Shown: one piece after another, positions 6,612 to 30,870 of the stretch
Numbering within the stretch: the first letter of the stretch is position 1
Layout of the letters: every line of letters begins with the position of its first letter
Origin: an uncultured virus (IMG/VR IMGVR_UViG_3300014159_000004)
Taxonomy: Duplodnaviria > Heunggongvirae > Uroviricota > Caudoviricetes
Length of the DNA: 33,188 nucleotides
IMG/VR virus record: IMGVR_UViG_3300014159_000004
Strand: one strand, 5' to 3'
Program-made: the position numbers and the translations under genes
Notes under the pieces: generated by a model
What the model was told of the DNA's origin: nothing
What the model saw: only the letters and a program-made list of their open reading frames with translations
Database searches by the model: none

Positions 6612-6689
6612 GGGTCGAGCGCTGGGACGCGACGGTGTCTGTAAAACACTGGCTTTCATGCTCGCTGGGTTCGATTCCCAGGCGACCCA
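6612..6689 (+). tRNA. tRNA-Tyr(GTA)
   Basis: Anticodon arm ggtgt-CTGTAAA-acact; GGTTCGATTCC T-arm. Confidence 0.85.
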
Positions 6690-6736
6690 CGAGGAGAGGA
6701 GGACACGATGAAACGCACCGGTCCAAAAGAAAGCGA

Positions 6737-6808
6737 GGGACGTTAGCTCCAGGGCGGAGCGGCAGCCTTTTAAGCTGCGCGGGCCGGGTTCGATCCCCGG
6801 GCGTCCCA
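6737..6808 (+). tRNA. tRNA-Lys(TTT)
   Basis: gcagc-CTTTTAA-gctgc; full cloverleaf. Confidence 0.9.
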
Positions 6809-6818
6809 CGACCCACGC

Positions 6819-6889
6819 GCGCCGGTAGCTCGAAGGTCGAGCAGGTGGCTCTTAACCACTCGGCGAGAGTTCGATTCTCTCTCGGCGCA
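6819..6889 (+). tRNA. tRNA-Lys(CTT)
   Basis: ggtgg-CTCTTAA-ccact; full cloverleaf. Confidence 0.9.
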
Positions 6890-6890
6890 C

Positions 6891-6957
6891 TGGGGATTCG
6901 ATGGTCGACAGGTGGTCTCTGAAGCCGCCGACGGTGGTTCGATTCCACCATCCCCAA
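6891..6957 (+). tRNA. tRNA-Gln(CTG)
   Basis: gtggt-CTCTGAA-gccgc; short D-arm. Confidence 0.85.
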
Positions 6958-6963
6958 CCGATG

Positions 6964-6998
6964 GCCCGACGCACACGGGCTATTCGCTCCTTGACAAC
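6964..6998 (+). promoter_or_regulatory. boxB-like hairpin plus boxA-like antitermination site
   Basis: GCCCG-N7-CGGGC hairpin then GCTCCTTGACAAC, similar to rrn boxA GCTCTTTAACA. Confidence 0.5.
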
Positions 6999-7080
6999 CT
7001 GGACGCACGTGACGCGCGGGCGCGAGCTCGCGGGCGGTCTCTGCGAAGTCACGACGCGCGGGCACGTAGCCGCGCAACAT

Positions 7081-7152
7081 TGCGATGCAGCATGAAGGTC
7101 ATGCGCCCGGCTGTTAACCGGAGAGAAGCGGGTTCGACTCCTGCCTTCGCAG
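7081..7152 (+). tRNA. tRNA-Asn(GTT)
   Basis: ccgg-CTGTTAA-ccgg; GGTTCGACTCC. Confidence 0.88.
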
Positions 7153-7158
7153 CTCGAC

Positions 7159-7227
7159 GCCGTCTTGTACCTGGGGTCAACGCGCTCTCGTAAGGCGCGT
7201 GGCGGGGTTCGAATCCCCGAGGCGGCT
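7159..7227 (+). tRNA. tRNA-Thr(CGT)
   Basis: gcgct-CTCGTAA-ggcgc. Confidence 0.85.
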
Positions 7228-7232
7228 CTCAC

Positions 7233-7305
7233 GTCCCGTTCGACTTCTTGGGCAGGTCGCCGGATTCTCGATCCGGACAGAGGGGTTCGAATCCCCTACG
7301 GGACG
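7233..7305 (+). tRNA. tRNA-Glu(CTC)
   Basis: ccgga-TTCTCGA-tccgg. Confidence 0.9.
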
Positions 7306-7310
7306 CTCTT

Positions 7311-7382
7311 GGTCCGCTTTCTCCTGGTGGGGTGGTCGGATTTTCAACTCGACTTCGACGGGTTCGATCCCCGTGCGGATCA
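7311..7382 (+). tRNA. tRNA-Glu(TTC)
   Basis: tcgga-TTTTCAA-ctcga (one mismatch). Confidence 0.75.
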
Positions 7383-7393
7383 CGAAGTAGTAC

Positions 7394-7466
7394 GCCGCGA
7401 GAGCTGGTGAGGTCATAGCGCCCGGTTGAAGCCCGGGAGAACTCCGCTCGATACGGAGTCGCGGCA
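7394..7466 (+). tRNA. tRNA-Phe(GAA)
   Basis: cccgg-TTGAAGC-ccggg; atypical T-loop CTCGATA. Confidence 0.8.
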
Positions 7467-7477
7467 CGAAGTGGTAT

Positions 7478-7549
7478 CAGGGTGAGGTGTTTGTGGTAGC
7501 ACGCTCCGTTCGGGCCGGAGTGGTGCGGGTTCGACTCCCGCCGCCCTGA
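7478..7549 (+). tRNA. tRNA-Pro(CGG)
   Basis: ctccg-TTCGGGC-cggag. Confidence 0.88.
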
Positions 7550-7551
7550 CT

Positions 7552-7628
7552 GTGACCGTGGTGTAGTGGTTTCTGCACGGCTGGTTGTGGCCCAGCAGGT
7601 ACGAGTTCAATCCTCGTCGGTCACCCCA
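7552..7628 (+). tRNA. tRNA-His(GTG)
   Basis: gctgg-TTGTGGC-ccagc; C73 discriminator and encoded CCA. Confidence 0.9.
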
Positions 7629-7629
7629 C

Positions 7630-7701
7630 CTCCTCGTCCCGCCGGATGCGGGCGGCGCACTCCTAAGGCGCACGTGCCGGGTCCGACTCCCGGCGAGGAG
7701 A
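7630..7701 (+). tRNA. tRNA-Arg(CCT)
   Basis: gcgca-CTCCTAA-ggcgc; ctcctcg/cgaggag acceptor. Confidence 0.8.
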
Positions 7702-7707
7702 CGAAAT

Positions 7708-7780
7708 GCCCCGTGACGCGCCTGGTGGCGCGGTCAGCTTGTCACGCTGCGCGAGACGGATTCGATTTCCGTACGGGGCG
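7708..7780 (+). tRNA. tRNA-Asp(GTC)
   Basis: cagc-TTGTCAC-gctg; G73. Confidence 0.85.
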
Positions 7781-7788
7781 CTGCGCCT

Positions 7789-7856
7789 GGGTCCATGCAT
7801 CGGATGCAGCTCGGTCTCCAAAACCGAGGATGAGGGTTCGACTCCTTCTGGGCCCG
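7789..7856 (+). tRNA. tRNA-Trp(CCA)
   Basis: tcggt-CTCCAAA-accga; short D-arm. Confidence 0.85.
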
Positions 7857-7866
7857 CGAAGTAAAC

Positions 7867-7937
7867 GGGCTGCTCGTCCAACGCGAGGACACCGCTTTCG
7901 CACTGCGGAGATGGGGGTTGGATTCCCCCGCGGTCCA
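7867..7937 (+). tRNA. tRNA-Ala(CGC)
   Basis: ccgct-TTCGCAC-tgcgg; G3:U70 pair present. Confidence 0.8.
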
Positions 7938-7945
7938 CTGGCTTT

Positions 7946-8016
7946 GCCCATGTCCGACGGTCGGGCTCCTCCTCGGTAAGGAGGCGCTGCGGGTTCAACT
8001 CCCGACGTGGGCTCCA
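7946..8016 (+). tRNA. tRNA-Thr(GGT)
   Basis: cctcc-TCGGTAA-ggagg; encoded CCA. Confidence 0.8.
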
Positions 8017-8018
8017 AC

Positions 8019-8086
8019 GCCGATCGGTCCAGGGACCACGGCCCCTTTGTATGGGCCACAGACGCGTTCGATTCGCGTGATCGGCT
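8019..8086 (+). tRNA. tRNA-Thr(TGT)
   Basis: gcccc-TTTGTAT-gggcc; GCCGATC acceptor is Thr-like. Confidence 0.7.
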
Positions 8087-8090
8087 CCGT

Positions 8091-8161
8091 GCGGGTGTAG
8101 GTGACGGTCACCGGCGCGCCTTCCAAGCGTTGCTACCCGGGTTCGATTCCCGGCATCCGCT
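8091..8161 (+). tRNA. tRNA-Gly(TCC)
   Basis: gcgc-CTTCCAA-gcgt; GCG start and U73. Confidence 0.88.
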
Positions 8162-8175
8162 CTGACGCTATTTGC

Positions 8176-8247
8176 GCGGGCGAGTCGGCAAGGTGCCGAG
8201 CGTGGTTGCCATCCACGTCCAGGCGAGTTCGATTCTCGTCGCCCGCT
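8176..8247 (+). tRNA. tRNA-Gly(GCC)
   Basis: cgtgg-TTGCCAT-ccacg; U73. Confidence 0.88.
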
Positions 8248-8252
8248 CTAGT

Positions 8253-8321
8253 GAGCCGATCTTCCGGCGAAGGACGCTGATTGCAACCTAGCGAAGCCCG
8301 GTTCAACTCCGGGTCGGCTCT
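8253..8321 (+). tRNA. tRNA-Cys(GCA)
   Basis: gctga-TTGCAAC-ctagc; U73. Confidence 0.8.
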
Positions 8322-8353
8322 CCGGGCGAGGCGCAGCGATGCGCCGAGCCTGC

Positions 8354-8424
8354 GCGCTCGTCCCGGCGGATCCGGGCATGGCACTTCTAAGGCCGTTGAC
8401 TCGTTTCGACTACGAGCGAGCGTT
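8354..8424 (+). tRNA. tRNA-Arg(TCT)
   Basis: tggca-CTTCTAA-ggccg. Confidence 0.75.
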
Positions 8425-8426
8425 CC

Positions 8427-8499
8427 CTCGTCGTTCCGGCGGATTTCCGGACCGGAGTTTCCGAAACTTCGTGCCCGGGTCCGACTCCCGGCGACGAGA
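8427..8499 (+). tRNA. tRNA-Arg(CCG)
   Basis: ggagt-TTCCGAA-acttc. Confidence 0.78.
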
Positions 8500-8500
8500 C

Positions 8501-8570
8501 CTCCCTGCCAGCGGACCTGGCGTCGACGCTACGAACGTTGATTGCGGCCGTTCAACTCGGTCCAGGGAGA
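8501..8570 (+). tRNA. tRNA-Arg(ACG)
   Basis: cgacg-CTACGAA-cgttg. Confidence 0.8.
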
Positions 8571-8571
8571 C

Positions 8572-8647
8572 CGCGGGGTGGCGTAGATTTAGTCGCCAGG
8601 TGGGCCCATAACCCTCCCGATGCCGGATGCAACACCGGTCTCCGCAA
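8572..8647 (+). tRNA. Initiator-type tRNA-fMet(CAT)
   Basis: CGCGGGG start with C1:A72 mismatch; GGG/CCC anticodon stem; loop CCCATAA; atypical T-loop. Confidence 0.8.
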
Positions 8648-8649
8648 CC

Positions 8650-8719
8650 GCCGACGACGACCGGGATCGAGCGCGCTCTCATAAGGCGCTGCAGTGGGGT
8701 TCGACTCCCCACGTCGGCA
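8650..8719 (+). tRNA. tRNA-Met(CAT), elongator (or Ile2)
   Basis: gcgct-CTCATAA-ggcgc. Confidence 0.8.
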
Positions 8720-8720
8720 C

Positions 8721-8788
8721 CGGAGGATACCTGGCGGGAGCATGCGCCCTACAAGCGCGAGCGCGGGGTCCGATTCCCCGGCCTCCGA
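8721..8788 (+). tRNA. tRNA-Val(TAC)
   Basis: tgcgc-CCTACAA-gcgcg. Confidence 0.75.
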
Positions 8789-8789
8789 C

Positions 8790-8868
8790 CGGACGCGTGC
8801 CTAAGCCGGCGGTCCCGGCGCACGTCTTATGAGCGTGTGGCTCGAGGGTTCAACTCCTGCGCGTCCGA
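8790..8868 (+). tRNA. tRNA-Ile(TAT), atypical
   Basis: cacgt-CTTATGA-gcgtg; cggacgc/gcgtccg acceptor; elongated D region. Confidence 0.65.
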
Positions 8869-8874
8869 CTCAAT

Positions 8875-8946
8875 GCGAGGCATGGCTGCTGGTGCAGCCA
8901 CCGGCTCGACACGCCGGCTAGGAGGGTTCGATCCCCTCGCCTCGCA
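8875..8946 (+). tRNA. tRNA-Val(GAC)
   Basis: ccggc-TCGACAC-gccgg. Confidence 0.85.
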
Positions 8947-8948
8947 CC

Positions 8949-9020
8949 CCGCCCAGAGGCCCGGTTGGCCTGCGATTGCTGATAACGATCGCGCGCTGCG
9001 TTCAACTCGCAGTGGGCGGA
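8949..9020 (+). tRNA. tRNA-Ile(GAT)
   Basis: gattg-CTGATAA-cgatc. Confidence 0.82.
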
Positions 9021-9044
9021 CAACGTGCTAGATCGAACCGCGCG

Positions 9045-9566
9045 ATGGAACCGCAGACGCTCGTGCTCACCCCGCACATGACTCCCCACCGGATCGCCGG
9101 TTGGCAGGAAGCGATCGTGCTCGTCTACACGGACAAGGTCGACGTGCTCGAGGAGTACGAGGCGACGATCTCGAGCCCGTCGGTGACGTTGCAGGTGCCC
9201 GCGGTGCTGCGCCTGCGCAAGGAGATGTCGCTCTTCAAGAAGGGCACGAAGTACAGCCCAGCGAACGTCATGCTCCGTGACAAGCACACGTGCTGCTACT
9301 GCGGCCAGAAGAAGCGGCCGCGCGATCTCAACATCGACCACGTCGTCCCGCGCGCGCAGGGCGGCAAGACGACGTGGCTGAACTGCGTCTCCTCGTGCCC
9401 GAGCTGCAACCGCCGCAAGGGGGCGCGCACGCCGGCGCAGGCAGGACTGAAGATGCACTTCCAGCCGCACGTGCCCAGGCAGTTGCCGTTCGCGCCGCTG
9501 CTGCTCATCGCGAAGGTGCCCGACCTATGGGTCCCCTACCTGTCGGCGAGCGCGCAGACGGCGTAG
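9045..9566 (+). CDS. HNH endonuclease (McrA/HNH_5-like) inside the tRNA array
   Basis: RDKHTCCYCG...NIDHVVPRAQGGKTTWLNCVSSCPSCNRRKG. Confidence 0.93.
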   Translation: MEPQTLVLTPHMTPHRIAGWQEAIVLVYTDKVDVLEEYEATISSPSVTLQVPAVLRLRKEMSLFKKGTKYSPANVMLRDKHTCCYCGQKKRPRDLNIDHVVPRAQGGKTTWLNCVSSCPSCNRRKGARTPAQAGLKMHFQPHVPRQLPFAPLLLIAKVPDLWVPYLSASAQTA

Positions 9567-9577
9567 CAAAAAAGTTT

Positions 9578-9668
9578 GGAAGGTACCGCTGAATGGTCGG
9601 CAATCCGGTTCGAACCCGGAGGCGTGGTGTAACCCATCACGGGCGTTCGATTCGTCTACTTTCCGCCA
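9578..9668 (+). tRNA. tRNA-Ser(CGA)
   Basis: tccgg-TTCGAAC-ccgga; long variable arm; G73 and CCA. Confidence 0.9.
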
Positions 9669-9681
9669 ACGTGAAAGCACT

Positions 9682-9766
9682 GGAAGAGGAACCGCGCGGG
9701 GCGCGGGCCGGTTTGCTAAACCGCGCGGCGGCATGAGCCGCTCTGGGTCGGGACCAGTCTCTTCCT
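9682..9766 (+). tRNA. tRNA-Ser(GCT), degenerate T-arm
   Basis: cggt-TTGCTAA-accg; long variable arm. Confidence 0.7.
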
Positions 9767-9776
9767 CCGTTGCGTC

Positions 9777-9860
9777 GTGCCTCGAGCGGGACTCGAACCC
9801 GCAAGCTCCGAAGAGCGGCGATTTTTAGGACCGCCTGGTCTACCGTTCCTCCACCGAGGC
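9777..9860 (-). tRNA. tRNA-Leu(TAA)
   Basis: Reverse complement gcggt-CCTAAAA-atcgc; long variable arm. Confidence 0.85.
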
Positions 9861-9865
9861 CCTCG

Positions 9866-9946
9866 TACTCCGGGCGCGAGTCGAACGCGCATGCCTTGCG
9901 GCACCCGATCTTGAATCGGGCGTGGATACCGTTTCACCACCGGAGC
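9866..9946 (-). tRNA. tRNA-Leu(CAA)
   Basis: Reverse complement cccga-TTCAAGA-tcggg. Confidence 0.88.
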
Positions 9947-9956
9947 ATTCACTTCG

Positions 9957-10039
9957 TACGCGGGGAGGGAGTTGAACCCTCACGCCCTCTCGGGCACGAC
10001 CACCTCAAGGTCGCGTGACTGCCATTCCACCACCCGCGT
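9957..10039 (-). tRNA. tRNA-Leu(GAG)
   Basis: Reverse complement cgacc-TTGAGGT-ggtcg. Confidence 0.88.
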
Positions 10040-12046: not shown

Positions 12047-12079
12047 ATGCTTGACTGAGCCTCAACGGTCAAGCATACT
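12047..12079 (+). promoter_or_regulatory. Transposase promoter overlapped by an inverted-repeat operator
   Basis: TTGACT-N17-CATACT; IR ATGCTTGAC/GTCAAGCAT (12047-12055 and 12068-12076). Confidence 0.7.
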
Positions 12080-12086
12080 GTCCAGT

Positions 12087-12959
12087 ATGAACACGCTGGA
12101 CGCCGCCACCCGCACCCGCATCGTCTCGGCCCTGGTCGAGGGGAACTCGATCCGCGCGACGTGCCGCATGACCGGCGCGGCGAAGGGCACCGTCTTGAAG
12201 CTCCTGGCGGACCTCGGCGCCGCCTGCCGCGCGTACCACGACGCGAACGTGCGCGGCCTGCACTGCAAGCGGCTCCAGTGCGACGAGATCTGGTCCTTCT
12301 GCGGCGCCAAGGACAAGAATGTCCTGCCCGACGAGGAAGGCTTCGGGCGCGGCTCGATCTGGACGTGGACCGCGCTCGACGCGGACACGAAGCTGATCGC
12401 CGGCTACCACATCGGCACGCGCGACGCTGGCTGCGCCTACGAGTTCATGACCGACCTCGCGTCACGCATCGAGACGCGCGTGCAGCTCACGACCGACGGA
12501 CACAAGGCGTACATCAACGCGGTCGCCGACGCGTTCGGGCCGTCGAATATCGACTACGCGATGCTCGTGAAGCTGTTTGGCGAGACGCCGGCCGGCGCAG
12601 GTCGCTACAGCCCGCCCGCGTGCATCGGGATCGAGATGCGCCCGATCATGGGCGAGCCGGACATGGAGCACGTGTCGACCTCGTACGTCGAACGCCAGAA
12701 CCTCACGATGCGGATGTCGATGCGCCGGTTCACGCGGCTCACGAACGCGTTCTCGAAGAAGTGCGAGAACCTCGCGCACGCGGTCGCGCTCCACTTCATG
12801 CATTACAACTTCTGCCGCGTGCACCAGACGCTCCGCGTGACGCCGGCCATGGCCGCGGGGCTCACGGATCATGTGTGGGAGATCGGCGAATTGATCGCGC
12901 TCATGCCGAAGCCGGTCGCGAAGCCGTGGGGGAGCGTGAAGCGCGCGGCGGTCGCCTGA
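12087..12959 (+). CDS. IS1-family DDE transposase, single ORF
   Basis: HTH (EGNSIRATCRMTG), QCDEIWSF, LTTDG, STSYVERQNLTMR...RFTRLT. Confidence 0.9.
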   Translation: MNTLDAATRTRIVSALVEGNSIRATCRMTGAAKGTVLKLLADLGAACRAYHDANVRGLHCKRLQCDEIWSFCGAKDKNVLPDEEGFGRGSIWTWTALDADTKLIAGYHIGTRDAGCAYEFMTDLASRIETRVQLTTDGHKAYINAVADAFGPSNIDYAMLVKLFGETPAGAGRYSPPACIGIEMRPIMGEPDMEHVSTSYVERQNLTMRMSMRRFTRLTNAFSKKCENLAHAVALHFMHYNFCRVHQTLRVTPAMAAGLTDHVWEIGELIALMPKPVAKPWGSVKRAAVA

Positions 12960-12963
12960 TCGG

Positions 12964-13356
12964 TCAACGCTGCGGCACCTTTGCCTTGAAGCCTCGCGGG
13001 GTGAATTGCGAACGGTGGAGCCCGATCCGCATCCTAGATAGGAGCGCGTCTGCAATGCACGTCTGTTTGCGGCCTGGTTGCAACGTATCGGTGTCCCCGG
13101 CCTCTACCTCTCGAAGGCCTCGGTAGAACACGTAGCTTTCGTGGGTGATGAACGGGTGCGCGTCCGGATCGCCGGGGCGAAGGATGCACGAGCGGTCCAC
13201 GAACCTATCCACCGTCGTGACGTTCACGATCGTGGCGCACACCGCGAGCGAATAGTCGGGCGTGTAGACAGCCAGGACGACCCACAGGTGATCGACGACC
13301 GCCGTCTTCGACGGGTTGAGCAGAAACGCATCCCCCGCCTCGACGGTTCCCCTCAC
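12964..13356 (-). CDS. Putative toxin, PemK/MazF-like fold
   Basis: GDAFLL...HLWVVL...IVNVTT...HPFITHESYV; coupled downstream of a Panacea gene. Confidence 0.55.
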   Translation of the reverse strand: MRGTVEAGDAFLLNPSKTAVVDHLWVVLAVYTPDYSLAVCATIVNVTTVDRFVDRSCILRPGDPDAHPFITHESYVFYRGLREVEAGDTDTLQPGRKQTCIADALLSRMRIGLHRSQFTPRGFKAKVPQR

Positions 13357-13934
13357 GACGAATGGATCAACCTATCGACTGCTGCGAGATACTTTGCGCG
13401 CTTGGCGCGATCGCTGATTGCTTCGTCGTTCTCGCCGACCGCGCGGAGAATGTCAGCGGCCGGCAATGGTGCAACCTTCGCGGGCTTGGGGTGCTTCCAC
13501 TCCGGAAGCCCGTGGACCACGTCGATCAGATGCGTGTATGAAACACGCTTATACTTCTTCGCGAGATCTGTCAGAACGCCGACGTCGTAATCCGAAAGCT
13601 GATCGTCGCCCGGGTCCTCTACAAGCTCGACGTTGTAGCCTTGGGTGCGGATGCAGTGGTCCCAAAGACTGTCGGCGACCTCGACCTCCCCCTTGATGCA
13701 GTTGTAGACCTCACTCAGAACAGGCCCGTTCGCCATGGACACGAACGTAGAGCCGGTGATCGGCTGACCGGTCTCGATCAGCGATTGCCTGTCGGCGAGG
13801 TACAGCTCCTTCAGGATGGACGTGTAGTTCTCGGTACCACCAGCCTCGCGCAGGAGAACGGCAGCAGCTTGCACGGCTCGACGTTCGTCAAACCGGAACC
13901 TGAGTTCGCCCCCCGCTTCCAATAGCATCGTCAA
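13353..13934 (-). CDS. Panacea (DUF4065/SocA-like) antitoxin
   Basis: LKELYLADRQSL..TGQPITG..FVSMANGPVLSEVY. Confidence 0.85.
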   Translation of the reverse strand: MTMLLEAGGELRFRFDERRAVQAAAVLLREAGGTENYTSILKELYLADRQSLIETGQPITGSTFVSMANGPVLSEVYNCIKGEVEVADSLWDHCIRTQGYNVELVEDPGDDQLSDYDVGVLTDLAKKYKRVSYTHLIDVVHGLPEWKHPKPAKVAPLPAADILRAVGENDEAISDRAKRAKYLAAVDRLIHSS

Positions 13935-14069
13935 CCACCATCTACCGATCCGCGCCTGCCCACGCGTTCAGGCTAACGCTAACGTATGACATCTGCAAGC
14001 CTCAATGCTTGAGCGGTCACGCAACGCGCCGCGTCAGCCCAACTCAAACTGACCCACTACCCCCGCGTG

Positions 14070-14137
14070 TCCGGGCCGAGGGGATCGAACCCTCTTCGCC
14101 GGATTCAAAATCCGGCTCCCCACCATGGGTGGCCCGA
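14070..14137 (-). tRNA. tRNA-Gln(TTG)
   Basis: Reverse complement ccgga-TTTTGAA-tccgg. Confidence 0.82.
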
Positions 14138-14138
14138 G

Positions 14139-14221
14139 TGCGTTGGGAGGGAGTTGAACCCTCACGACCTTGCGGTCACTGCGGTCTGAACGCAGCGCGG
14201 ATACCGTTTCGCCACCAACGC
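14139..14221 (-). tRNA. tRNA-Leu(CAG)
   Basis: Reverse complement ctgcg-TTCAGAC-cgcag; long variable arm. Confidence 0.9.
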
Positions 14222-14687: not shown

Positions 14688-14932
14688 TCGTCGGCCTCCA
14701 GCTTGTCGAGTCGCGCGATCTGGTCGCACAGTCGCCTGCGCGCGCAGCGCCAGGAGCAGGCGTCGAAGTGCTCGCTCGCCGACGCGCGCTCTCCAGACCG
14801 ACCGTCCGCAACCGACAGCATCACGATGAGGCCGTTCGTGTTGCGCGGGGAGGTCACCGCGATGGAGTTCCCGCAGACCGCGCACGCAATCGGCTCGGCC
14901 TCGCGAGCGACGGGGGACCCCTTGCGCCTCAT
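14684..14932 (-). CDS. Hypothetical Zn-binding protein
   Basis: CAVC...CSWRC; ATGA coupling. Confidence 0.55.
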   Translation of the reverse strand: MRRKGSPVAREAEPIACAVCGNSIAVTSPRNTNGLIVMLSVADGRSGERASASEHFDACSWRCARRRLCDQIARLDKLEADE

Positions 14933-15339
14933 CGCGCCTTTGGGCGCCTCGCCAGCCCCTCGCGCACCCCCTGCGTCACGAGCGTGAGCTCCTTCGGGCT
15001 CAGCGTGGCGCACGTCGCGATGAGCCTGGTGACCGTGCGCGCGCTCACGGCCGTCCCGGCGCGCTCCGGGTGGGGCGCCACCGGCGGCAGCTTGGGTAGC
15101 GGAGGCAGCTTGGTCTCGTCGATCTTGCCCGCGGCGTCGTGGGGCACGCTCACCTTGAGCGTGCCCTTCGCGATCCCGGCGCGCACGCCGGCCGTGACGG
15201 CCGCGAGCTCCGGGTCGTTGAGCGAGAGCGCCATCGCGACGCAGTGGGCGACGAGCGCGAGGTCGGGGTCCACGCGGGCGGTCTTCTTCTTCGCGCGGAT
15301 CGCTTCCCGGAAGGCGGTGACGGCGGCGGATTCGGGCAT
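14929..15339 (-). CDS. Hypothetical protein
   Basis: ORF from ATG 15339 coupled to next gene. Confidence 0.6.
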   Translation of the reverse strand: MPESAAVTAFREAIRAKKKTARVDPDLALVAHCVAMALSLNDPELAAVTAGVRAGIAKGTLKVSVPHDAAGKIDETKLPPLPKLPPVAPHPERAGTAVSARTVTRLIATCATLSPKELTLVTQGVREGLARRPKAR

Positions 15340-15386
15340 GCCTGGGAGGGTAGCACCGTGCACAGCCGCCCGCAGTCGGCACTTGC

Positions 15387-16870
15387 CCGAGGCGCCGCGA
15401 TGCCGTAGCCACACGGGAAAGGAAGAAATACTCCGACGCCTCTACCCTAGCCGCGATCTCCGAGGCGCCGCGGTGCCGCAACCATCTGCAGAGCATGAGT
15501 GCTGTTCCGGCACCGGAGATCGGGCCGCGATCTCCGAGGCGTCGCGGTGCCGTAGTCACACCAGCCTGTGACCATGGAGCAGTAGTCGGCGTAGTCGCGA
15601 TCTTCGAGGCGCCGCGATGCCGCGATACCCGTCCGTCCTCGCGAGTTCAGTAGGTCGCGGTCTCACGAGGCTCCGCGATGCCATCATCAACCATCCAGGC
15701 CGCCACGGTGCGAGCAGGTCGCGGTCTCAGAGGCGTCGCGATGCCATAGCCACGGCACGGGCGCATCGGTCGTCCGTGTGGTTGATCAGGTCGCGATCTC
15801 CGAGGCGCCGCGATGCCGTAGCCACGAGAGCGAGGTCGACCACTTCGACTCGTGGCTCCAAGTCGCGATCTCCGAGGCGCCGCGATGCCATAGCCACCCG
15901 ATCGACGGGTACAAAACTCGCTCGTCCCACTTGGTCGCGATCTCCGAGGCGCCGCGATGCCGTAGCCACACGGGAAAGGAAGAAATCCTCCGACGCCTCT
16001 ACCCTAGCCGCGATCTAAGAGGCGCCGCGGTGCGGCAGCCATCTGCAGATCACGAATCAACTCACTCCCGGTCGCGATCTTATAGGCGCCGCGATGCCGT
16101 AACTACGGGCGCGCCTTGCAGGTCATGACCTGCATCATGCACCGAGCCGCGATCTCCGAGGCGCCGCGATGCCGTAGCCACTTCGCCGCGCTCGTCGAGA
16201 CGACGCTCGGCCGGAGCGTGTCGCGATCTCCGAGGCGCCGCGATGCCGTAGCCACAGGATCTGCACGCGCGCGCCACGACCCAGCGAAGTCGCGATCTCC
16301 GAGGCGCCCCCCGCGCACCCAAATAACCCGCACGCGCCCGTCATTCGTCGACTCTCCTCTTCGGTGGTGGTCTCTTCGGTAAGTTCTGCAGGACCGCCGG
16401 GTCGCGATCTCCGAGGCGCCGCGATGCCGTAGCCACTCGTCACCCATCGCATCAGCCACCTGATGCGCCGTGTCGCGATCTCCGAGGCGCCGCGATGCCG
16501 TAGCCACCGGCATTGCGATTGAAGCACGCGACCGACTACACGGTGTCGCGATCTCCGAGGCGCCGCGATGCCGTAGCCACGAGAGCGAGGTCGACCACTT
16601 CGATTCGTGGCTCCAAGTCGCGATCTCCGAGGCGCCGCGATGCCGTAGCCACGTCGTCGGGGGCATCAGGATGGCCAGCGAGGACGCGTCGCGATCTCCG
16701 AGGCGCCGCGATGCCGTAGCCACCGGATCTGCGGCTGGCCCGGCGACTGTTCGCTCACCGGGTCGCGATCTCCGAGGCGCCGCGATGCCGTAGCCACGTC
16801 GGGATACGACGGTCGACGTTGTGGCGATCAGATTGTCGCGATCTCCGAGGCGCCGCGATGCCGTAGCCAC
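15387..16870 (-). CRISPR. CRISPR array: 21 repeats (some degenerate or truncated) and 20 spacers; repeat GTGGCTACGGCATCGCGGCGCCTCGGAGATCGCGAC
   Basis: 36-bp repeat, mostly 33-39 nt spacers; perfect copies near the cas gene and degenerate copies distally, so transcribed on - from a leader at 16871-16968. Confidence 0.97.
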
Positions 16871-16968
16871 AGGTGGCCGAAAAACGTTCCGATTTTCAAA
16901 GACCTGCGCGGCCGCCTGCGAGCGCCGCCCCGATCGGGTAGCCGACCCGGGCGCGACCTGCCAGTTGA

Positions 16969-19026
16969 CTACTCTGCCGCCCGGCCGAACCCCTCGACGC
17001 GCCTCGACTTCTTCGCCCCGCGAGCGCCCCCACCCACGTTCACGCCGCCCGAGGGCTCGCCCGAGTGCCGGTCGTAGAGATGCTTGGCCGCGTTGAGGTC
17101 CTGGTCGTAGACCTGCCCGCACGCGAAGCAGGTGACCGGGATCTGCGGCAGCGGGTCAGACGACTCGCCGCCGCAGCCGTGGTGCTCGACCGTGATCCGC
17201 TCGCTCGGCGCCCGGTGCACGTTCGCCTCGCCGAACGCCGCCTCGAGCGCGTCTACCAGCTCGCTCACGCACGCGAGCACGCGGTTGCTGTTGCCGCGCA
17301 CCTCTTGCTCGGTGCGGGTGTCGGCCTCGGGGTCCGGCGTCTCGGCCGTCTCGGACTTGTTCCACTGCTCGATGACGACGCGCTCGTAGCGGGCGGCCAA
17401 GTCGCGCGCGTAGCACCGGTAGCGGTCTCTCCTCGACCGGCGCAGGCGCAGGTCGTTGTTCCTGGCCCAGTTGACGAGGTGCCGGTCCTTGGCCCGCCAC
17501 CAGTCGAGGTAGACCGCGAGCACCTGGTCCGCGCTCACGACCCCGCGCCCGGCGAGCCACGCCTTGATCTCGTCGAGCGGCCCGAACAGGTCCAGCTTCG
17601 GCGACCGCTCGAGTCGCCACGCCTTCCAGAGCGCGGGCACGTCGACCCCGCGCGCCTCGAGCCAATCTCTGCGCAGGTCCAGAGCCACCCGCGCGAGCCG
17701 ACCGTGGCTGCGCCAGGCGTGCACCGTGTCGAGCGACCAGGCGGCGACCTGCTCGGGCGAGAACAGGCTGCGCTCGCCCCCCTTGAACCAGCCGGCCAGA
17801 GCGTCCCTGACCGCGAGGAAGTGCTCGTCCGCGTACGACAAGAGGCGATCGGCGAGGTCCGACCCCTCGCGGAAGGATCGCGGCAGCACCAGCCGGTCCT
17901 CCGCGCGCGAGGCGCTGCCCGACCACGGCGTCGCGACCCGCAGGTCACCGTTCTTGAGCGCGCGCCAGCCGAGGTTCAGCGCGATGGTCCCGCGCGCCCC
18001 CGCGCTCTGCGCCCGCGCCCGGTCGACCGAGTCGCAGGTCAGCTGCAGCTCGTAGTGCCACACGAGGCCGACCCGCCGCGCGACGACGTACGCCCAGCGC
18101 ACCCGCGCCTCCGGGGCCATGTCCCGGTGCCACACGACCGGCAGGTGCAGCCACGTCGCCTGGTCGCCGCGCCCGGACAGGTGCAGGTGCACGACCGCGT
18201 ACCGGGTGCCGTTCGCGCGCGCGGTCATGTCCGCGGGGAACTCGACGCGGACCTGACCGACCGCGGCGCCGACGACGTCGTCGGCCGAGAGCCCGCCGCC
18301 CCGGACCTGCAGCCCCACGCGCTCGCACTCGAGCCGCGAGAACGGCGGGTCCCCGGCGCACTCAGCGAACGACTTCTCCGCGGCGGCCTCCACGGCGAGG
18401 TACGTCCCGACGGCGCACCCGCACTCGGCGCGAGCGCGCTTGGCGAGCGCCTCGTGCTCCATCTGCGACCGGGTCTTTGCCTTCCACGGCTCGCCGACGG
18501 CCGGGTCGGCGAGCGCACGCTCGCGCACCGCTGCCGTGATCGCCGCGAGCACGTGCGGGCCGATTGGCCCCGGGTCGGCGCCGCGCGCGAACCGGGCGAC
18601 CGCGCACGCGAAGCCCACGGCGGCCGTCACGGACTGCTTCGCCTCGCGGTACTTCTGATCGGCGGCGCCGAACACGTCGGCAGTCGTCCGGTCGCGCGCC
18701 TCGGCGTACGCCTTCCAGGCGCCCGACCGCGCTGCACTCAACCGGCGCACCTCGGCGGCGACCGGGTGCCGCGCGCGCTCCGCGCGCGGCACGCCCGACA
18801 AGAGCCGGCGCCCCTCGACGACCGCGCGGTCGGCCGCCGCGTAGGCGGCGTGGAGGTGCGCGAGCTCGGGCGACAGGGAGTTTCGGAGGTCGCGGTACGC
18901 CGCCCGGCGCGAGCGCTCGATCTCCACGAGGCGGTTTCGGTAGCGGTGCGCGGCGCGCACCTCGCGGTCGATGATCTGGCGCGCCTCGAGCGGCAGCGGA
19001 CCGATCCCCCACTTGTAGACCAGCAT
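16969..19026 (-). CDS. cas12m: Type V-M (V-U1/C2c4) Cas12m-like effector, RuvC-I Asp replaced by Asn
   Basis: AHRYRNRLVEIE N-terminus, long coiled coil, WLHLPVVWHR, RuvC-I TIALNLGWR, RuvC-II VVIE, H..C/C..C Zn finger, RuvC-III YDQDLNAA; abuts the array; GAGGAG RBS. Confidence 0.85.
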   Translation of the reverse strand: MLVYKWGIGPLPLEARQIIDREVRAAHRYRNRLVEIERSRRAAYRDLRNSLSPELAHLHAAYAAADRAVVEGRRLLSGVPRAERARHPVAAEVRRLSAARSGAWKAYAEARDRTTADVFGAADQKYREAKQSVTAAVGFACAVARFARGADPGPIGPHVLAAITAAVRERALADPAVGEPWKAKTRSQMEHEALAKRARAECGCAVGTYLAVEAAAEKSFAECAGDPPFSRLECERVGLQVRGGGLSADDVVGAAVGQVRVEFPADMTARANGTRYAVVHLHLSGRGDQATWLHLPVVWHRDMAPEARVRWAYVVARRVGLVWHYELQLTCDSVDRARAQSAGARGTIALNLGWRALKNGDLRVATPWSGSASRAEDRLVLPRSFREGSDLADRLLSYADEHFLAVRDALAGWFKGGERSLFSPEQVAAWSLDTVHAWRSHGRLARVALDLRRDWLEARGVDVPALWKAWRLERSPKLDLFGPLDEIKAWLAGRGVVSADQVLAVYLDWWRAKDRHLVNWARNNDLRLRRSRRDRYRCYARDLAARYERVVIEQWNKSETAETPDPEADTRTEQEVRGNSNRVLACVSELVDALEAAFGEANVHRAPSERITVEHHGCGGESSDPLPQIPVTCFACGQVYDQDLNAAKHLYDRHSGEPSGGVNVGGGARGAKKSRRVEGFGRAAE

Positions 19027-19047
19027 TCTAGCGTTCTCCTCTCGAGG

Positions 19048-19218
19048 TCACTTGATGAGGTCCTCTCGCTTCAACTTCCTGAGCGCGCTGCGCAGGCGTT
19101 CCTTGGAGTGGTCGCTCAAGAGCACGGAGATCCCGTGCTCGAGAGCGCGCTTGACGGTGCGCGGGTCGAGCTGGGCCTCCAGCGCGATCCGCATGAGTGT
19201 GGGTCGGTCGACTTCCAT
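19048..19218 (-). CDS. Small HTH-like protein (56 aa), not in ORF track
   Basis: MEVDRPTLMRIALEAQLDPRTVKRALEHG...; AGGAAGG RBS. Confidence 0.6.
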   Translation of the reverse strand: MEVDRPTLMRIALEAQLDPRTVKRALEHGISVLLSDHSKERLRSALRKLKREDLIK

Positions 19219-19254
19219 CTTTGCGCCTTCCTGGTCGGGGTCCCGCCCCGCAGT

Positions 19255-19662
19255 CTACTCGTCGAGCTCGTCGATCTGGCGCCGCAGCTCCTTCTCCGAG
19301 AGGTTGGAGAGTTTCCCGTCCTGCTTCTCGGCGAGGATCGCGAGCAGCTTCTCCTTCCTGACCTTCCTGTCCGCCCGCCTCTTCGCGTCCTCCTCCTCGG
19401 CGAGCCTCGCGTCGATGACGCACTTGACGATCTCCAGCGCGGTCTCGCGCCGGTCGTGCTCCGGCGTCCGAGCGGTCTCTACGAAGCTCTCCTCGGCGAG
19501 GTCCTTCCACGCCTTGTTGGCGGCCTTCGCGACGGCGTTGAGGTTGAAGTCGTCTTTCGACCGCAGGGGGACGTCCCAGAGCTGCTCGGTGGAGAGTTCC
19601 CCCCTGACGGACTGGAACCGGAGCTTGTTGCGGGTGGCGTACGCGAAGATGTCGGTGACCAT
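19255..19662 (-). CDS. Phage-type coiled-coil hypothetical protein
   Basis: IFAYATRNKLRF.S.RG.LS.EQLWD.PL...EESF...LLAILAEKQD; GAGGAG RBS. Confidence 0.8.
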   Translation of the reverse strand: MVTDIFAYATRNKLRFQSVRGELSTEQLWDVPLRSKDDFNLNAVAKAANKAWKDLAEESFVETARTPEHDRRETALEIVKCVIDARLAEEEDAKRRADRKVRKEKLLAILAEKQDGKLSNLSEKELRRQIDELDE

Positions 19663-19682
19663 GGTCTCACTCCTCTGCCGGC

Positions 19683-21752
19683 TCACGCGCCGACCTTGAT
19701 GTTGAACACTCGCTGCTTTCGGCCCTGGTGGACCCGGACGATGAACGACTCGCGCTTGGTCGACGAGAAGCCGAGCCCCGAGAGCTGCCCCTCGGTGGGG
19801 GCGCACTTGGTCTTGTCGCCGATGACCTCGAAGACTTTGCGGTGCGGCTCGAGGCGCGGGTGCAAGAACTCGTTATAGAAGCCGCGCGTCGGCTCGTCGT
19901 TCTTGCACCCGTCGATGAGGAAGAACGTGTGCTTGTTGCCGACCGCGCTATCGCCCCAGTAGTTCGGACTCAACATGACCGCGCTGACCTTCACGTACTG
20001 CTCGGTCGTGAGACCCCACTTCTCCTGCGAGATGTTGGCGGCGGTGATGCCCGGGTCGCCGACCTCGACCTTCTCGACGACGCCACCGCGCACGTGGAGG
20101 GTCACGACGGCGACGTCCTGTTGACCGCGAACGCCCTTGTTGTACGAGAAGTGCGAGAGCTTGCCGCCACTTTCTACTTCGACGACGAACCCCGGGTTGC
20201 TCGTCTCGCGCTGCGTGAAGTTGTTGACGACGACGCGGTACGCGCCGTCCGGAGGCGGCGCCGACCACACGACGTTCTCGACGGCCTCGCGGGTCGTGCC
20301 GTGGCCCGCGTTCATGTCGACGTCGAGCGTGCCGCCCGTCCACCCGCGCTTGTTGCGGAAGTAGATGTGGTCCTCGAACGCGTGGCGCCCGCGCCCCGGC
20401 GGCTCGTGCACGTGCAGGTCGAGGTCGTCGAAGTTGAACCAGGAGAGCGACACGCGCAGCGCCGCGCCCTCCACCTTGCCGCCGGCCTTCTTCACGCGCT
20501 CCTTGATGCTGTCCGCGACGTTGCCGCCGTAGGACCACGCGAAGTCGTTGTCCCACCGGAAGAGCTGCTTCGGCTCCGGGTGCACGGGAGCCGTCAGTGA
20601 CACCAGGTTGCCGACGTGCTCGCTCTTGAAAAACAGCTCAAGGCTCGTCGTCTCGGGCAGCACCCTCGCCACGAAATCGTCGATCCCGATCGGCTCCGCG
20701 CGCTCCGCGTCGTGCTCTGCGCTCCGGCTCACCGCGGTCGCGTGCTGCATGAGCACATCCCCGATGCCGCCCTTCATCAGCGGCTTGACGGTCCCGTCGA
20801 CCCACTTCACGTCGTTGACGGACACGTCGCTGATGACGGCGAACCGCCGCTCGAGGGCGGACTCGAGGCCGAGCACCTCGATCGTCTCCATCGCCTTCTT
20901 CACCATGCCGGGCGTGATGATGGCGGTCGTGCGCTTGTAGTTCTGCGGCGCGACCTTCGTCTCGAAGGCGCGCACCGCTTGCTCGACGTCCTGGCCACCG
21001 GACAGGTCCTGCACGAGCGTGCCGATCACGGTGTTGCGGAAGCGCGCAGCGGGGTGACCCGCGTTCGCCCACGCGAAGAGGGAGCGCCCGCGACCCTCGC
21101 TCCTCGAGAGGTACGCGCGCTGCGCGGCCATGAAATTCACGATCGCGAACTTGTGCTCCTCGCCGCGATAGAGCGCGCCAGCCTCCACGAGCGAGAGCGC
21201 GGTCTCCACCGCGCTCGGGGTCAGCTCGACCAGCCCGCGCTCGAAGACCTGCACCGTCGTGCGGTAGTCGCCGCGCACCTGGTCGGGCGTCTCCGACCGC
21301 AATTTTCTCGGGATCTCCCCCGTGTAGAGGTGCTGCCACGTGAGAGCGCGGCCGGTCTCCCTGTCGAGCGACCGCGACAGGGCCGCGCCGAAGCTCACCT
21401 CCCTCTCGCCCACGCGAAAGAGGTCGCAGACGCTCGCGGCGCGCACGACGTCCTGCAGATACGTCGCCACCACCTGGTAGACGCCCATCCCCTCCACGGC
21501 GGCCCGGTCCCAGACCGTGTTCAGCACGCCGTCGTCGCCGATGGTCACGACAGCGCCGGCCCGGCGAATGAAGTGCCGGCAGCAGCGGCAGTCGTGCTCG
21601 GTCGACTTCTTGAAGATCGAGTCGGCGCCGGCGGGAAACGCCGCGATGTACTCCTCGTACAGCGAGCCGACGTCCGCGACGAAGACGTCCTGGGACTTCG
21701 TCAGCTGCTGGAATGACTCCGCGACCGTCCTAGCGAACACTGAGAAATCCAT
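19683..21752 (-). CDS. Large phage-type protein with YfaP/DUF2135-like domain
   Basis: HDCRCCRHF; LRVSLSWFNFDDLDLH...LDVDMNAG...AVENVVW; LSGLGFSST. Confidence 0.8.
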   Translation of the reverse strand: MDFSVFARTVAESFQQLTKSQDVFVADVGSLYEEYIAAFPAGADSIFKKSTEHDCRCCRHFIRRAGAVVTIGDDGVLNTVWDRAAVEGMGVYQVVATYLQDVVRAASVCDLFRVGEREVSFGAALSRSLDRETGRALTWQHLYTGEIPRKLRSETPDQVRGDYRTTVQVFERGLVELTPSAVETALSLVEAGALYRGEEHKFAIVNFMAAQRAYLSRSEGRGRSLFAWANAGHPAARFRNTVIGTLVQDLSGGQDVEQAVRAFETKVAPQNYKRTTAIITPGMVKKAMETIEVLGLESALERRFAVISDVSVNDVKWVDGTVKPLMKGGIGDVLMQHATAVSRSAEHDAERAEPIGIDDFVARVLPETTSLELFFKSEHVGNLVSLTAPVHPEPKQLFRWDNDFAWSYGGNVADSIKERVKKAGGKVEGAALRVSLSWFNFDDLDLHVHEPPGRGRHAFEDHIYFRNKRGWTGGTLDVDMNAGHGTTREAVENVVWSAPPPDGAYRVVVNNFTQRETSNPGFVVEVESGGKLSHFSYNKGVRGQQDVAVVTLHVRGGVVEKVEVGDPGITAANISQEKWGLTTEQYVKVSAVMLSPNYWGDSAVGNKHTFFLIDGCKNDEPTRGFYNEFLHPRLEPHRKVFEVIGDKTKCAPTEGQLSGLGFSSTKRESFIVRVHQGRKQRVFNIKVGA

Positions 21753-21784
21753 CGCCGCCCTCACTCAGGTCAAAATGACGCCCC

Positions 21785-21831: not shown

Positions 21832-21907
21832 GGACCCTGCGGCACGACTCGAACGTGCGGCCCCCGGTTCCGTAGACCGGTGCTCTTCCAACTGAGCTAC
21901 GAGGGTC
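21832..21907 (-). tRNA. tRNA-Arg(ACG), stand-alone
   Basis: Canonical TAGCTCAGTTGGA D-arm; ccggt-CTACGGA-accgg. Confidence 0.88.
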
Positions 21908-29584: not shown

Positions 29585-30067
29585 TCATCCCGACCTCCTG
29601 CGCGTCCCGGCCACGATCCGAGCGACCGACGTCCGGTGCAAGCCGAGCCGCCGCCCGATCGCCGTGAACGACTCGCCCGCCTGCGCGGACTCGCGGATGG
29701 CAGCCACCACCGAGTCGCCCGTCGCCTTCCGCGGTCCACCGCGTGGGTGCGTGCCATGCACGCGCTTGTCGGCCTCGTTCTCCTCGGGCAGCGCCCAGCG
29801 CAGGTTGCCCGCGCGATTGTTGCCGCGGTCCCTGTCCGGGAAGTGCGCGCCGTGGTGGCGCGTCGAGGGTCGCGGGGCCACGAACGCCTCGAGCACGAGC
29901 GCGTGGACTGGCCGCCAGACCCGCCGGCCGTCGGGCGACACCAGCCGGACCCTCAGGTAGCCGCCGCGCCACTGCGGCAGGAGCGCGAGGCGCCCGCGCC
30001 GGACGTGGCCGCCGCGGGAGACGCGGTAGCCTGGGAAACCCGCGATCGGGCGCCAGATGGGTCTCAC
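29585..30067 (-). CDS. NUMOD4/HNH_3 endonuclease with C-terminal HTH
   Basis: WRPIAGFPGYRVS..G; GYLRV; VHALVLEAF; H...DRGNNRAGNLRW. Confidence 0.85.
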   Translation of the reverse strand: MRPIWRPIAGFPGYRVSRGGHVRRGRLALLPQWRGGYLRVRLVSPDGRRVWRPVHALVLEAFVAPRPSTRHHGAHFPDRDRGNNRAGNLRWALPEENEADKRVHGTHPRGGPRKATGDSVVAAIRESAQAGESFTAIGRRLGLHRTSVARIVAGTRRRSG

Positions 30068-30261
30068 CTGTCGCCCCGACGTCGCACCCTCATCGCGTCC
30101 CCGAAGGTGGTCCGCAGCGTCGGTTTGCCCGCCGCGCGCAGCGCATCCTCCTCGCGCTTGCGTCGCTGCATGCGCTGGAGATCGGTCTCCTCCACGGGTG
30201 ACCTGTCTGGATCGCAGCCGGAACACCCCGCGCACCCAAATAACCCGCACGCGCCCGTCAT
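30064..30261 (-). CDS. Hypothetical protein
   Basis: ATGA-coupled ORF with Cys-rich start. Confidence 0.5.
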   Translation of the reverse strand: MTGACGLFGCAGCSGCDPDRSPVEETDLQRMQRRKREEDALRAAGKPTLRTTFGDAMRVRRRGDR

Positions 30262-30602
30262 TCGTCGACTCTCCTCTTCGGTGGTGGTCTCTTCGGTAAG
30301 TTCTGCAGGACCGCCGGCGTCGGCACCTCACGACCGCGCGGCGCGAGTCCGCGGCTGACGAGGTTCGCGTAGGCGGGGACGACGCGCCCGTGGACGCTGG
30401 TGACCCACCCGCGCTGCTTGTCCGAGAGCTGGTGGAACGGCCTACCGGCGTCCGTCCCGTCCAGGATCCCGCCGTACGCCTGCAGGTCGAAGCGCATGCT
30501 GGCAAACGCCTCCGTCTCGCGGTCAGTGAGCTCGTCGGCGTGCTTGCCTAGCAGTTCGCCGAGGAGGTTGAGGTCGGAGGTGCGCTTCGAGTCACTGATC
30601 AT
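30258..30602 (-). CDS. Hypothetical protein
   Basis: ATGA-coupled ORF; LSDKQRGWV. Confidence 0.65.
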   Translation of the reverse strand: MISDSKRTSDLNLLGELLGKHADELTDRETEAFASMRFDLQAYGGILDGTDAGRPFHQLSDKQRGWVTSVHGRVVPAYANLVSRGLAPRGREVPTPAVLQNLPKRPPPKRRVDE

Positions 30603-30870
30603 CGCAGATCAAGAGTCTGCACGAGCCACGCGATGAGTGTATCCGTTCGCTCGCCATTCTCGGATCGGGTCTGCATTTCCGTCATCGCACTCCATCGCCG
30701 CTCCACAGAGACGCCGCAACTCCCACCGTTTGCCTCCAGAAACGTCGAGAGCGCGGCCCACCCGCTCCGTTTGTTGCTGTCCATGAAGACGTGCCCCTGG
30801 ACGATATAGACGGCGTAGGCTGCCGCGATCTCGGGCACCGACTCGTAGTACGAGTTGTTGACGGCACGGC
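30599..30870 (-). pseudogene. Fic/Doc toxin fragment lacking its N-terminus
   Basis: AAAY...IVQGHVFMDSNKR resembles the Doc motif HxFxD(A/G)NKR. Confidence 0.7.

Follow-up and report, generated by a model that had tools for sequence, protein, structure and literature searches.

We analyzed a 33,188-nucleotide (nt) stretch of DNA (the window) from an uncultured virus of the Caudoviricetes, IMG/VR record IMGVR_UViG_3300014159_000004, and conclude that it probably carries a type V-M (Cas12m) locus on a large mobile element classed as a virus, with an effector that binds without cutting and is guided by an array of its own. The window corresponds to bases 61443-94630 of a 117,319-bp record that has a G+C content of 69% and no terminal repeats; the source collection lists the record as a virus and gives a completeness estimate of 100%. 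The cas12m-like gene (16969..19026, minus strand) starts with ATG, encodes 685 amino acids (aa), and occurs as a single copy in the record. It is followed on the same strand by 98 nt between the stop codon and the first repeat, which we read from the sequence as a leader (16871..16968), and then by a CRISPR array of 21 copies of a 36-nt repeat with 20 inter-repeat segments (15377..16870).

An earlier note on this DNA had proposed a Cas12m-like effector with its own array and had placed TIALNLGWR at RuvC-I, Glu at RuvC-II and DQD at RuvC-III of the 685-aa protein, about 100 nt from the leader-end repeat. All of these features were found, the three motifs at N351, E553 and D643. The note had also seen no cas1, cas2 or cas4 in the window, and a six-frame search with the Pfam models for Cas1, Cas2 and Cas4 extended this to the entire 117-kb record (0 matches; the control genomes did match). 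Subtype V-M (Cas12m) formerly went by the name V-U1. Adaptation genes are described as typically absent from V-U1 to V-U5 loci (PMC11013384).

The effector and its RuvC site

The family assignment is based on sequence profiles, a predicted structure and structural ranking. The PADLOC model Cas12u1 matches the 685-aa protein with an E-value of 2.2e-65. Searched as a single sequence against the chains of the Protein Data Bank (PDB), the protein matched 23vw_A (“CRISPR-associated DNA-binding protein Cas12m”) at 9e-33 and UnCas12m4a at 4e-6. A profile of the 30 nearest relatives matched all five solved Cas12m sequences at E-values from 1.1e-73 to 2.4e-31 (23vw, 1.1e-73; 23vu, 4.5e-36; 8pm4, which is GoCas12m, 5.1e-36; 8hhl and 8hio, both Cas12m2, about 2e-31). 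The best chain outside Cas12m for the same profile, deposited as a transposase, had an E-value of 4e-5. Pfam gave a weak Cas12f1-like zinc-finger hint only, and an NCBIfam scan of the protein returned nothing useful.

An AlphaFold2 model built on the 30-relative alignment reached a mean predicted local distance difference test score (pLDDT) of 86.9 and a predicted template modeling score (pTM) of 0.80, with disorder limited to the last 27 residues. The modeled fold is bilobed, with REC helices, a RuvC domain and a zinc-finger (TNB) domain, and lies closest to solved Cas12m; the predicted zinc-finger residues H615, C618, C633 and C636 are invariant among the 30 nearest relatives. The top four Foldseek matches of the model are Cas12m entries, including 8pm4 and 8hhl (E-values 3.4e-21 to 7.3e-16; TM-score for 8pm4, 0.60 by query and 0.67 by target). 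The fifth match has an E-value of 6e-7, so that Cas12m comes first by 14 orders of magnitude, and no other Cas12 subtype, TnpB or Fanzor does better than this.

An ordinary TnpB was considered and rejected, given profile E-values of 1e-73 for Cas12m versus 4e-5, the Foldseek order with Cas12m first, the 21-repeat array, the single gene copy, and the Asn at RuvC-I; TnpB of IS200/IS605 elements usually occurs in several copies and has a D-E-D site. The earlier note had suggested comparing the protein with Cas12m and TnpB by hidden Markov models and by structure, and Cas12m came out far better; its proposal of a Cas12m-like effector was borne out by PADLOC, the PDB profile and Foldseek alike. Because the sequence profiles, the predicted structure and the Foldseek ranking agree, the 685-aa protein is, as far as alignment and modeling can tell, a Cas12m-family (type V-M) effector and not an ordinary TnpB.

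When the protein is aligned with 23vw_A by HMMER, GTIALNLGWR falls on GTAAIDLGWR, VVIEQW on IVLEEF, and YDQDLNAAKHL on WDQDYNAAKNL. By this alignment, with which the family alignment agrees, the RuvC triad is N351-E553-D643, and the first Asp of the site is therefore missing. An exhaustive search of 1.84 billion representative proteins recovered 2,542 relatives at E<=1e-3, of which 315 reached E<=1e-30. The nearest representatives are mostly about 640-790 aa long, and 146 of the 151 nearest (those of at least 480 aa that were aligned) were used to count triads. N-E-D is the commonest of them (44 proteins), followed by D-E-D (42), N-D-D (8), N-G-D (6) and D-A-D (3), with all others at two proteins or fewer each.

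The Asn at RuvC-I is invariant in all 30 nearest relatives, and two of the three closest (77, 47, and 42% identity) have Ala or Gly in place of the Glu. For these two reasons we regard the Asn, judging from the alignments, as a fixed clade-wide state in a decaying active site and not as a peculiarity of this gene. The Asp-to-Asn change that the earlier note had singled out is thus present, but its weight as a special feature was overstated: N-E-D accounts for 44 of the 146 aligned proteins, and an Asn at RuvC-I has already been described in N-D-D proteins (PMC11013384; preprint 10.64898/2026.03.26.714355), among them PmCas12m, with a reported site of N372-D494-D581 (preprint 10.64898/2026.03.26.714355).

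With E553 and D643 kept and the zinc finger intact, the effector could be imagined as a nuclease that is still active and cuts its targets. We consider this very improbable. The residue lost in all 30 nearest relatives is the first metal-binding Asp, the Glu has gone as well in two of the three closest ones, and in the assays of PMC11013384 no DNA cleavage was seen even for Cas12m proteins with a D-E-D site.

The array and its proposed mode of action

Read on the strand of the gene, the 36-nt repeat runs GTGGC...GCGAC. Ten copies are perfect, including all seven nearest to cas12m; copies at the far end show 1 to 13 mismatches, and the final one breaks off at the start of the next gene. We place the leader on the cas12m side because of the polarity of the repeats and the A+T-richer stretch beside the first of them. 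Sixteen of the 20 inter-repeat segments measure 33-39 nt, and 18 are distinct, S04/S14 and S12/S20 being duplicated pairs. These duplications are traces of recombination: S04 and S14 differ by one mismatch, and the segment made up of repeat 12, S12 and the first part of repeat 13 is found again, at 94% identity, as repeat 20, S20 and repeat 21. A search of the window for an anti-repeat found no repeat-like copy on the reverse strand at up to 13 mismatches in 36. The array that the earlier note had assigned to the effector stands, with 21 repeats that start 98 nt downstream on the same strand.

In the repeat, C14-G34, G15-C33, C16-G32 and G17-C31 (that is, positions -23..-20 with -3..-6) can pair in a 5-bp stem that ends at position -3 and is followed by an unpaired AC. 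The PmCas12m CRISPR RNA (crRNA) is reported to pair -23..-20 with -3..-6 (preprint 10.64898/2026.03.26.714355), and Cas12m2 to contact the crRNA bases A(-2) and C(-1) (PMC10442227). A stem of 5-6 bp ending at -3, with an AC tail, occurs in five of five repeats compared, our own and those of four loci of relatives (L012, L014, L015 and L020), and the stem sequences differ between them. The repeats of a further relative, L017, are arranged in this way too, and a compensating change occurs within one array. The stems were compared by direct helix count, and each singly is weakly significant, being reached by 2.4-15% of shuffles. A possible second pairing of 3 bp (G9-C11 with G20-C22) is non-significant by itself.

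In every relative's locus that we looked at, an array lies directly 3' of the effector. Those of L012 (17 repeats), L015 (13), L017 (9) and L020 (8) are directly downstream on the same strand, as are the four repeats of L014, which run up to the contig end, and the two repeat copies at the contig end of L016. The shape of our repeat is that of the Cas12m family. A likeness of the repeat ends to some type I-C repeats, which the earlier note had suggested, found no support because the repeat matches no Rfam family, either at the gathering score or at E<=10; no host array was found to share it, and the I-C consensus itself was not compared.

The effector gene and the array that lies downstream of it on the same strand are probably transcribed together, or the gene shortly before the array. 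The effector would then most likely cut the long transcript within the repeats, giving guides that consist of a repeat-derived 5' handle and a spacer, and such a guide would lead it to matching double-stranded DNA beside a short flanking motif. There the effector would most likely stay bound and block transcription or replication of the target, because its RuvC site is N-E-D and no tested family member cuts DNA. The likeliest targets would be competing mobile elements. We infer guide processing, motif-dependent binding, the lack of cleavage, and silencing from tested relatives: Cas12m proteins with D-E-D, H-D-D and N-D-D sites are reported to bind DNA in a motif-dependent manner without cutting it and to protect by binding (PMC11013384, PMC10442227, preprint 10.64898/2026.03.26.714355), and processing of the precursor crRNA is reported to be independent of the RuvC site (PMC11013384, PMC10442227). 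A simple scan of positions 14800-19900 for sigma-70-like promoters and for terminators returned 0 and 0, and no RNA run is among the sequencing runs listed as holding the cas12m-array stretch.

For the V-M loci of plasmids and prophages, most targets are reported to be plasmid genes (PMC11656645). The spacers here, for which the earlier note had recommended database searches, found no target in the collections searched. The whole array had no match in 50,697 phage records, and its matches to plasmids (11 records) all had E-values of at least 0.1, which is chance level. Exact 20-24-nt seeds of S01, S04/S14, S02 and S05, representing four of the 18 distinct spacers, gave 0 matches each in viral contigs. 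Among 401 + 401 genomes of two high-G+C phyla (those of G002 and G004), 33 and 34 had matches to the array, all of 50 bits or less. These were rejected as composition noise, since many of them hit S09, which is GC-rich, or straddle the junction of a spacer and a repeat; one is in genome G487, on which no claim rests. Some loose ends at 16182 and 16198, in S09, might belong to contigs with a protospacer, and we make no claim from them.

Several of these results weigh against a non-cutting effector of the V-M type acting through this array. The protein is only 18-20% identical to the Go and Mm Cas12m proteins in structural alignment and exceeds the studied members of the family by about 90 aa, and the N-E-D triad is not represented among the eight Cas12m proteins reported as tested in PMC11013384. 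No credible protospacer was found in the phage, plasmid, seed and 802-genome searches, and the only DNA that the array clearly matches is the element's own. We still hold the V-M reading to be probable. The RNA-guided repressor without cutting activity that the earlier note had proposed is the best reading by analogy with tested Cas12m, but its use against competitors is a guess because no protospacer was found.

Array variation, spacer origin and a self-derived unit

The stretch is present in 20 DNA sequencing runs of 17 studies, from wetland, lake-water and freshwater samples dated 2017 to 2023, and we compared contigs of four runs (X1, X4, X8 and X13) with the window. The cas12m gene differs at 12 nucleotide positions in X4, X8 and X13, and X1 is identical throughout. 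Codon by codon, all 12 differences are silent, including those in two doubly changed codons, which still specify Arg. Because every difference is silent, we conclude that purifying selection maintains the gene while the array changes.

Variant arrays in contigs of other runs show that populations differ in their spacers. In X4 and X13, which belong to two studies, 34 other letters adjoin the terminal repeat. In X4, moreover, the block around a copy of the element's own DNA (described below) abuts the flank directly, with 21 other letters between; a variant in this run lacks about 860 bp of the distal array. Such variation is compatible with uptake, loss or rearrangement alike and does not tell them apart.

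The earlier note had proposed that new spacers are acquired by host Cas1-Cas2 in trans. We regard uptake of this kind on this array as possible, if somewhat unlikely. The segment lengths (16 of 20 at 33-39 nt), the ten perfect repeats at the leader end, and the different 34-nt segment beside the terminal repeat in contigs of two runs from two studies speak for such uptake, but the same changes may stem from recombination, of which the array holds two duplicated units, a segmental duplication, a deletion-like variant and a 92-nt self-copy. Uptake through a host system with matching repeats found no support. The 22-nt repeat core, searched by exact match, is absent from the viral contigs searched, and in a collection with one genome for each of 185,579 species it has four single matches, all in coding DNA. 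A host array with the same repeat was therefore rejected, the four matches having neither repeats nor a Cas12m relative nearby and being put down to chance. Because these are the only matches of the core, no host array with this repeat is known, and the earlier note's suggestion to compare the repeat with host arrays found none in that collection; an exact search for the core would miss a diverged host repeat or an unsampled host.

One unit of the array is derived from the element itself. The perfect repeat 7 is followed by a 92-nt block (16309..16400, minus strand) and then by only the last 20 nt of a repeat, the first 16 nt being missing. The block starts exactly at the end of repeat 7 and is identical, in the same orientation, to positions 30226..30317 of the window. 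At this source, 60 nt form the end, stop codon included, of the gene 30258..30602 (minus strand), which encodes a 114-aa protein with no family found, and the other 32 nt precede an HNH endonuclease gene (phrog_59, PHROGs E-value 1.6e-23, open reading frame (ORF) 29585..30505). One contig of X4 spans 16219-16436, so the block lies inside the array there, and in X1 a 92-nt piece is covered at about twice the depth, as a sequence with two copies in the genome should be. The array has no second self-match; the next best is 16 nt. The source belongs to a group of accessory genes at 29585-31569 (minus strand) that comprises a HigA-like helix-turn-helix gene (31255-31569), a Doc/Fic-like ORF (30599-30838), the gene of the 114-aa protein, which follows the Doc/Fic-like ORF, and the HNH gene within 29585-30505.

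Such a unit raises the idea that the system, or at least one of its guides, regulates the element's own genes, the guide from repeat 7 and the first part of the self-copy addressing the 3' end of 30258..30602 and setting a roadblock before the HNH gene. The exact match of 92 nt begins precisely where a full repeat ends and is the sense-strand sequence of the gene, and at least two runs, which come from separate studies and years, have contigs that retain the block within the array. Targeting self would be harmless for an effector that does not cut, and Cas12m2 is reported to silence even from a site in the 3' untranslated region (PMC10442227). The unit is aberrant, however: with 92 nt and a truncated next repeat it looks like illegitimate recombination and not like spacer uptake. 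The 5' flank of the target (...CCGACG) does not resemble the TTN or YTN motifs reported for Cas12m, the site is at the end of the gene and not at a promoter, and a second self-match is absent.

We therefore think self-regulation improbable and, on account of its length, the truncated repeat, the flank and the gene-end position, read the 92-nt unit as more likely a tolerated product of illegitimate recombination. It would be a long shot to see the non-cutting Cas12m as partly a regulator of its own carrier, with the self-copied guide parking the effector at the end of a small gene near a Doc-like toxin gene and before a homing-endonuclease gene. If this were true, it would be a natural CRISPR-interference circuit inside a virus, and the long N-E-D proteins would be a Cas12m branch with properties of its own.

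The carrier and known systems

The carrier is likely a virus. Just upstream of cas12m lie two minus-strand genes of phage families of unassigned function: 19255-19806 (phrog_2018, E-value 6.9e-36) and 19683-21764 (phrog_1735, E-value 8.7e-226), the latter with 107 nt about 80% identical to Caulobacter phages. There are 29 transfer RNA (tRNA) genes, 28 found by ARAGORN and one by Rfam, at 6612-10039, 14069-14221 and 21834-21906. Most of these form a single cluster that is broken by an HNH endonuclease gene (8976-9566, plus strand). Genes for HNH endonucleases, for a Sak4-like protein accompanied by an exonuclease and for a Dam-type methylase are present in the record, as is an M23 peptidase gene in a series of ORFs on one strand, several of which are large and have no family assignment. 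The record also holds several toxin-antitoxin genes, an integrase gene (3823-4722, minus strand) and, between the tRNA clusters, a weak match to an IS1-like DDE transposase (12051-12959, plus strand) and a gene for a Panacea (SocA-like) antitoxin-domain protein (13353-13934, minus strand).

PHROGs scans of 96 and 30 ORFs and Pfam scans of 26, 60, and 10 ORFs detected no terminase, portal or capsid family, and six-frame searches for Terminase_6N, TerL_ATPase and Phage_capsid had no match. Protein-atlas look-ups of two ORFs as capsid candidates gave sub-threshold leads only. Replication, partition and conjugation families were likewise without a match in the same PHROGs and Pfam scans. The term “phage” thus rests mainly on the label of the collection, the 29 tRNA genes and the phage-family neighbors. 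On these grounds the phage-borne origin stated in the earlier note is plausible, although neither a terminase nor a capsid was found.

The identical 685-aa protein also occurs on a contig of 148,905 bp, so the record, although rated complete, may be partial. On a 132-kb contig lies a 685-aa protein that falls into one 90%-identity cluster with P0002, the relative with 77% identity. No close relative was found in viral contigs with the single protein as query, and the 30-sequence alignment recovered one, L012, on another contig of the viral collection (131 kb, A+T-rich, estimated 31% complete). Its protein is 30% identical and has the triad N-E-N, and the Cas1 and Cas2 models had no match on its contig. 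The Cas12m-like gene and array of L012 are flanked on both sides (1-1020 and 8331-9101) by genes made of 69-nt (23-aa) tandem repeats. Three identical matches, L017, L018 and L019, lie exactly 90,651 bp apart on one 274-kb contig; the spacing most likely means that a circular element of about 90.7 kb, with a Cas12m-like gene (25% identity) and a 9-repeat array, is present there as a threefold concatemer.

The carrier could instead be a plasmid-like or other mobile element, or the record a part of a larger genome, with the locus serving competition between elements. The missing terminase, portal and capsid, the lack of terminal repeats, the identical protein on the longer contig, and the presence of an integrase, an IS1-like transposase and several toxin-antitoxin genes would fit such a carrier, and type V-M is reported to be strongly enriched in plasmids (PMC11656645). 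We nonetheless judge it quite unlikely. The 29 tRNA genes, the two upstream phage-family genes, the 107-nt match to Caulobacter phages, the HNH endonucleases, the Sak4-like protein with its exonuclease and the M23 peptidase in its same-strand run all speak for a virus, no replication, partition or conjugation family was matched, and the completeness estimate is 100%.

A viral carrier for Cas12m has a close precedent in MvCas12m of myxophage MV-1, which a preprint names the first Cas12m identified in a bacteriophage (bioRxiv 10.64898/2026.09.14.751636). As described there, it likewise combines a viral Cas12m with an array and lacks cas1, cas2 and cas4; it has no trans-activating crRNA (tracrRNA), and no protospacers were found for it either. 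Compared by description, MvCas12m has 610 aa, a D305-E463-D555 site and 8 spacers, whereas the locus here has 685 aa, N-E-D and 21 repeats, and differs further in its tRNA-rich 117-kb record and its self-derived unit. UnCas12m, too, is listed as derived from an IMG/VR scaffold (PMC11013384, Table S2). The V-M loci of plasmids and prophages are described as non-cutting, borne by mobile elements and thought to serve competition between elements (PMC11656645); the carrier here, in contrast, looks like a large virus.

With the characterized Cas12m proteins the effector shares the fold, domain order, zinc finger, and 3' stem with AC tail of its repeat, and probably the single crRNA. Its downstream array and missing adaptation genes are further common features, and so is a RuvC site that is non-canonical and varies across the family. 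The triads reported for them are H-D-D (MmCas12m2 and GoCas12m), N-D-D (MkCas12m, PpCas12m and PmCas12m) and D-E-D (MsCas12m, TfCas12m, ApCas12m and UnCas12m). They are 536-628 aa long, against 685 aa here, and the Go and Mm proteins were missed by single-sequence phmmer. More distant are TnpB and TldR, homologues with a RuvC and a zinc finger, of which TldR proteins are also nuclease-dead repressors; these have no CRISPR array and take their guide from the gene's own 3' end, whereas here a single gene copy stands beside 21 repeats. CasPhi (Cas12j) and CasLambda (Cas12l) of huge phages are likewise compact effectors of type V that come with separate arrays and lack adaptation genes, but they are active nucleases of other subtypes, with Foldseek E-values of about 1e-5 to 1e-4 against 3e-21 for Cas12m.

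Silencing by V-M, the Asn at RuvC-I, the absence of adaptation genes, carriage by plasmids and prophages, and a phage-borne Cas12m with an array are thus already published. To these the locus adds a long N-E-D branch outside the tested set, a large and varying array beside a gene kept by selection, and a conserved self-derived unit. It documents a natural CRISPR effector, most likely non-cutting, on a large virus-like element that is widespread in wetland and lake samples. The long N-E-D branch could widen the choice of compact DNA-binding tools, and the self-derived unit offers a concrete test case for the regulation of carrier genes by such effectors.

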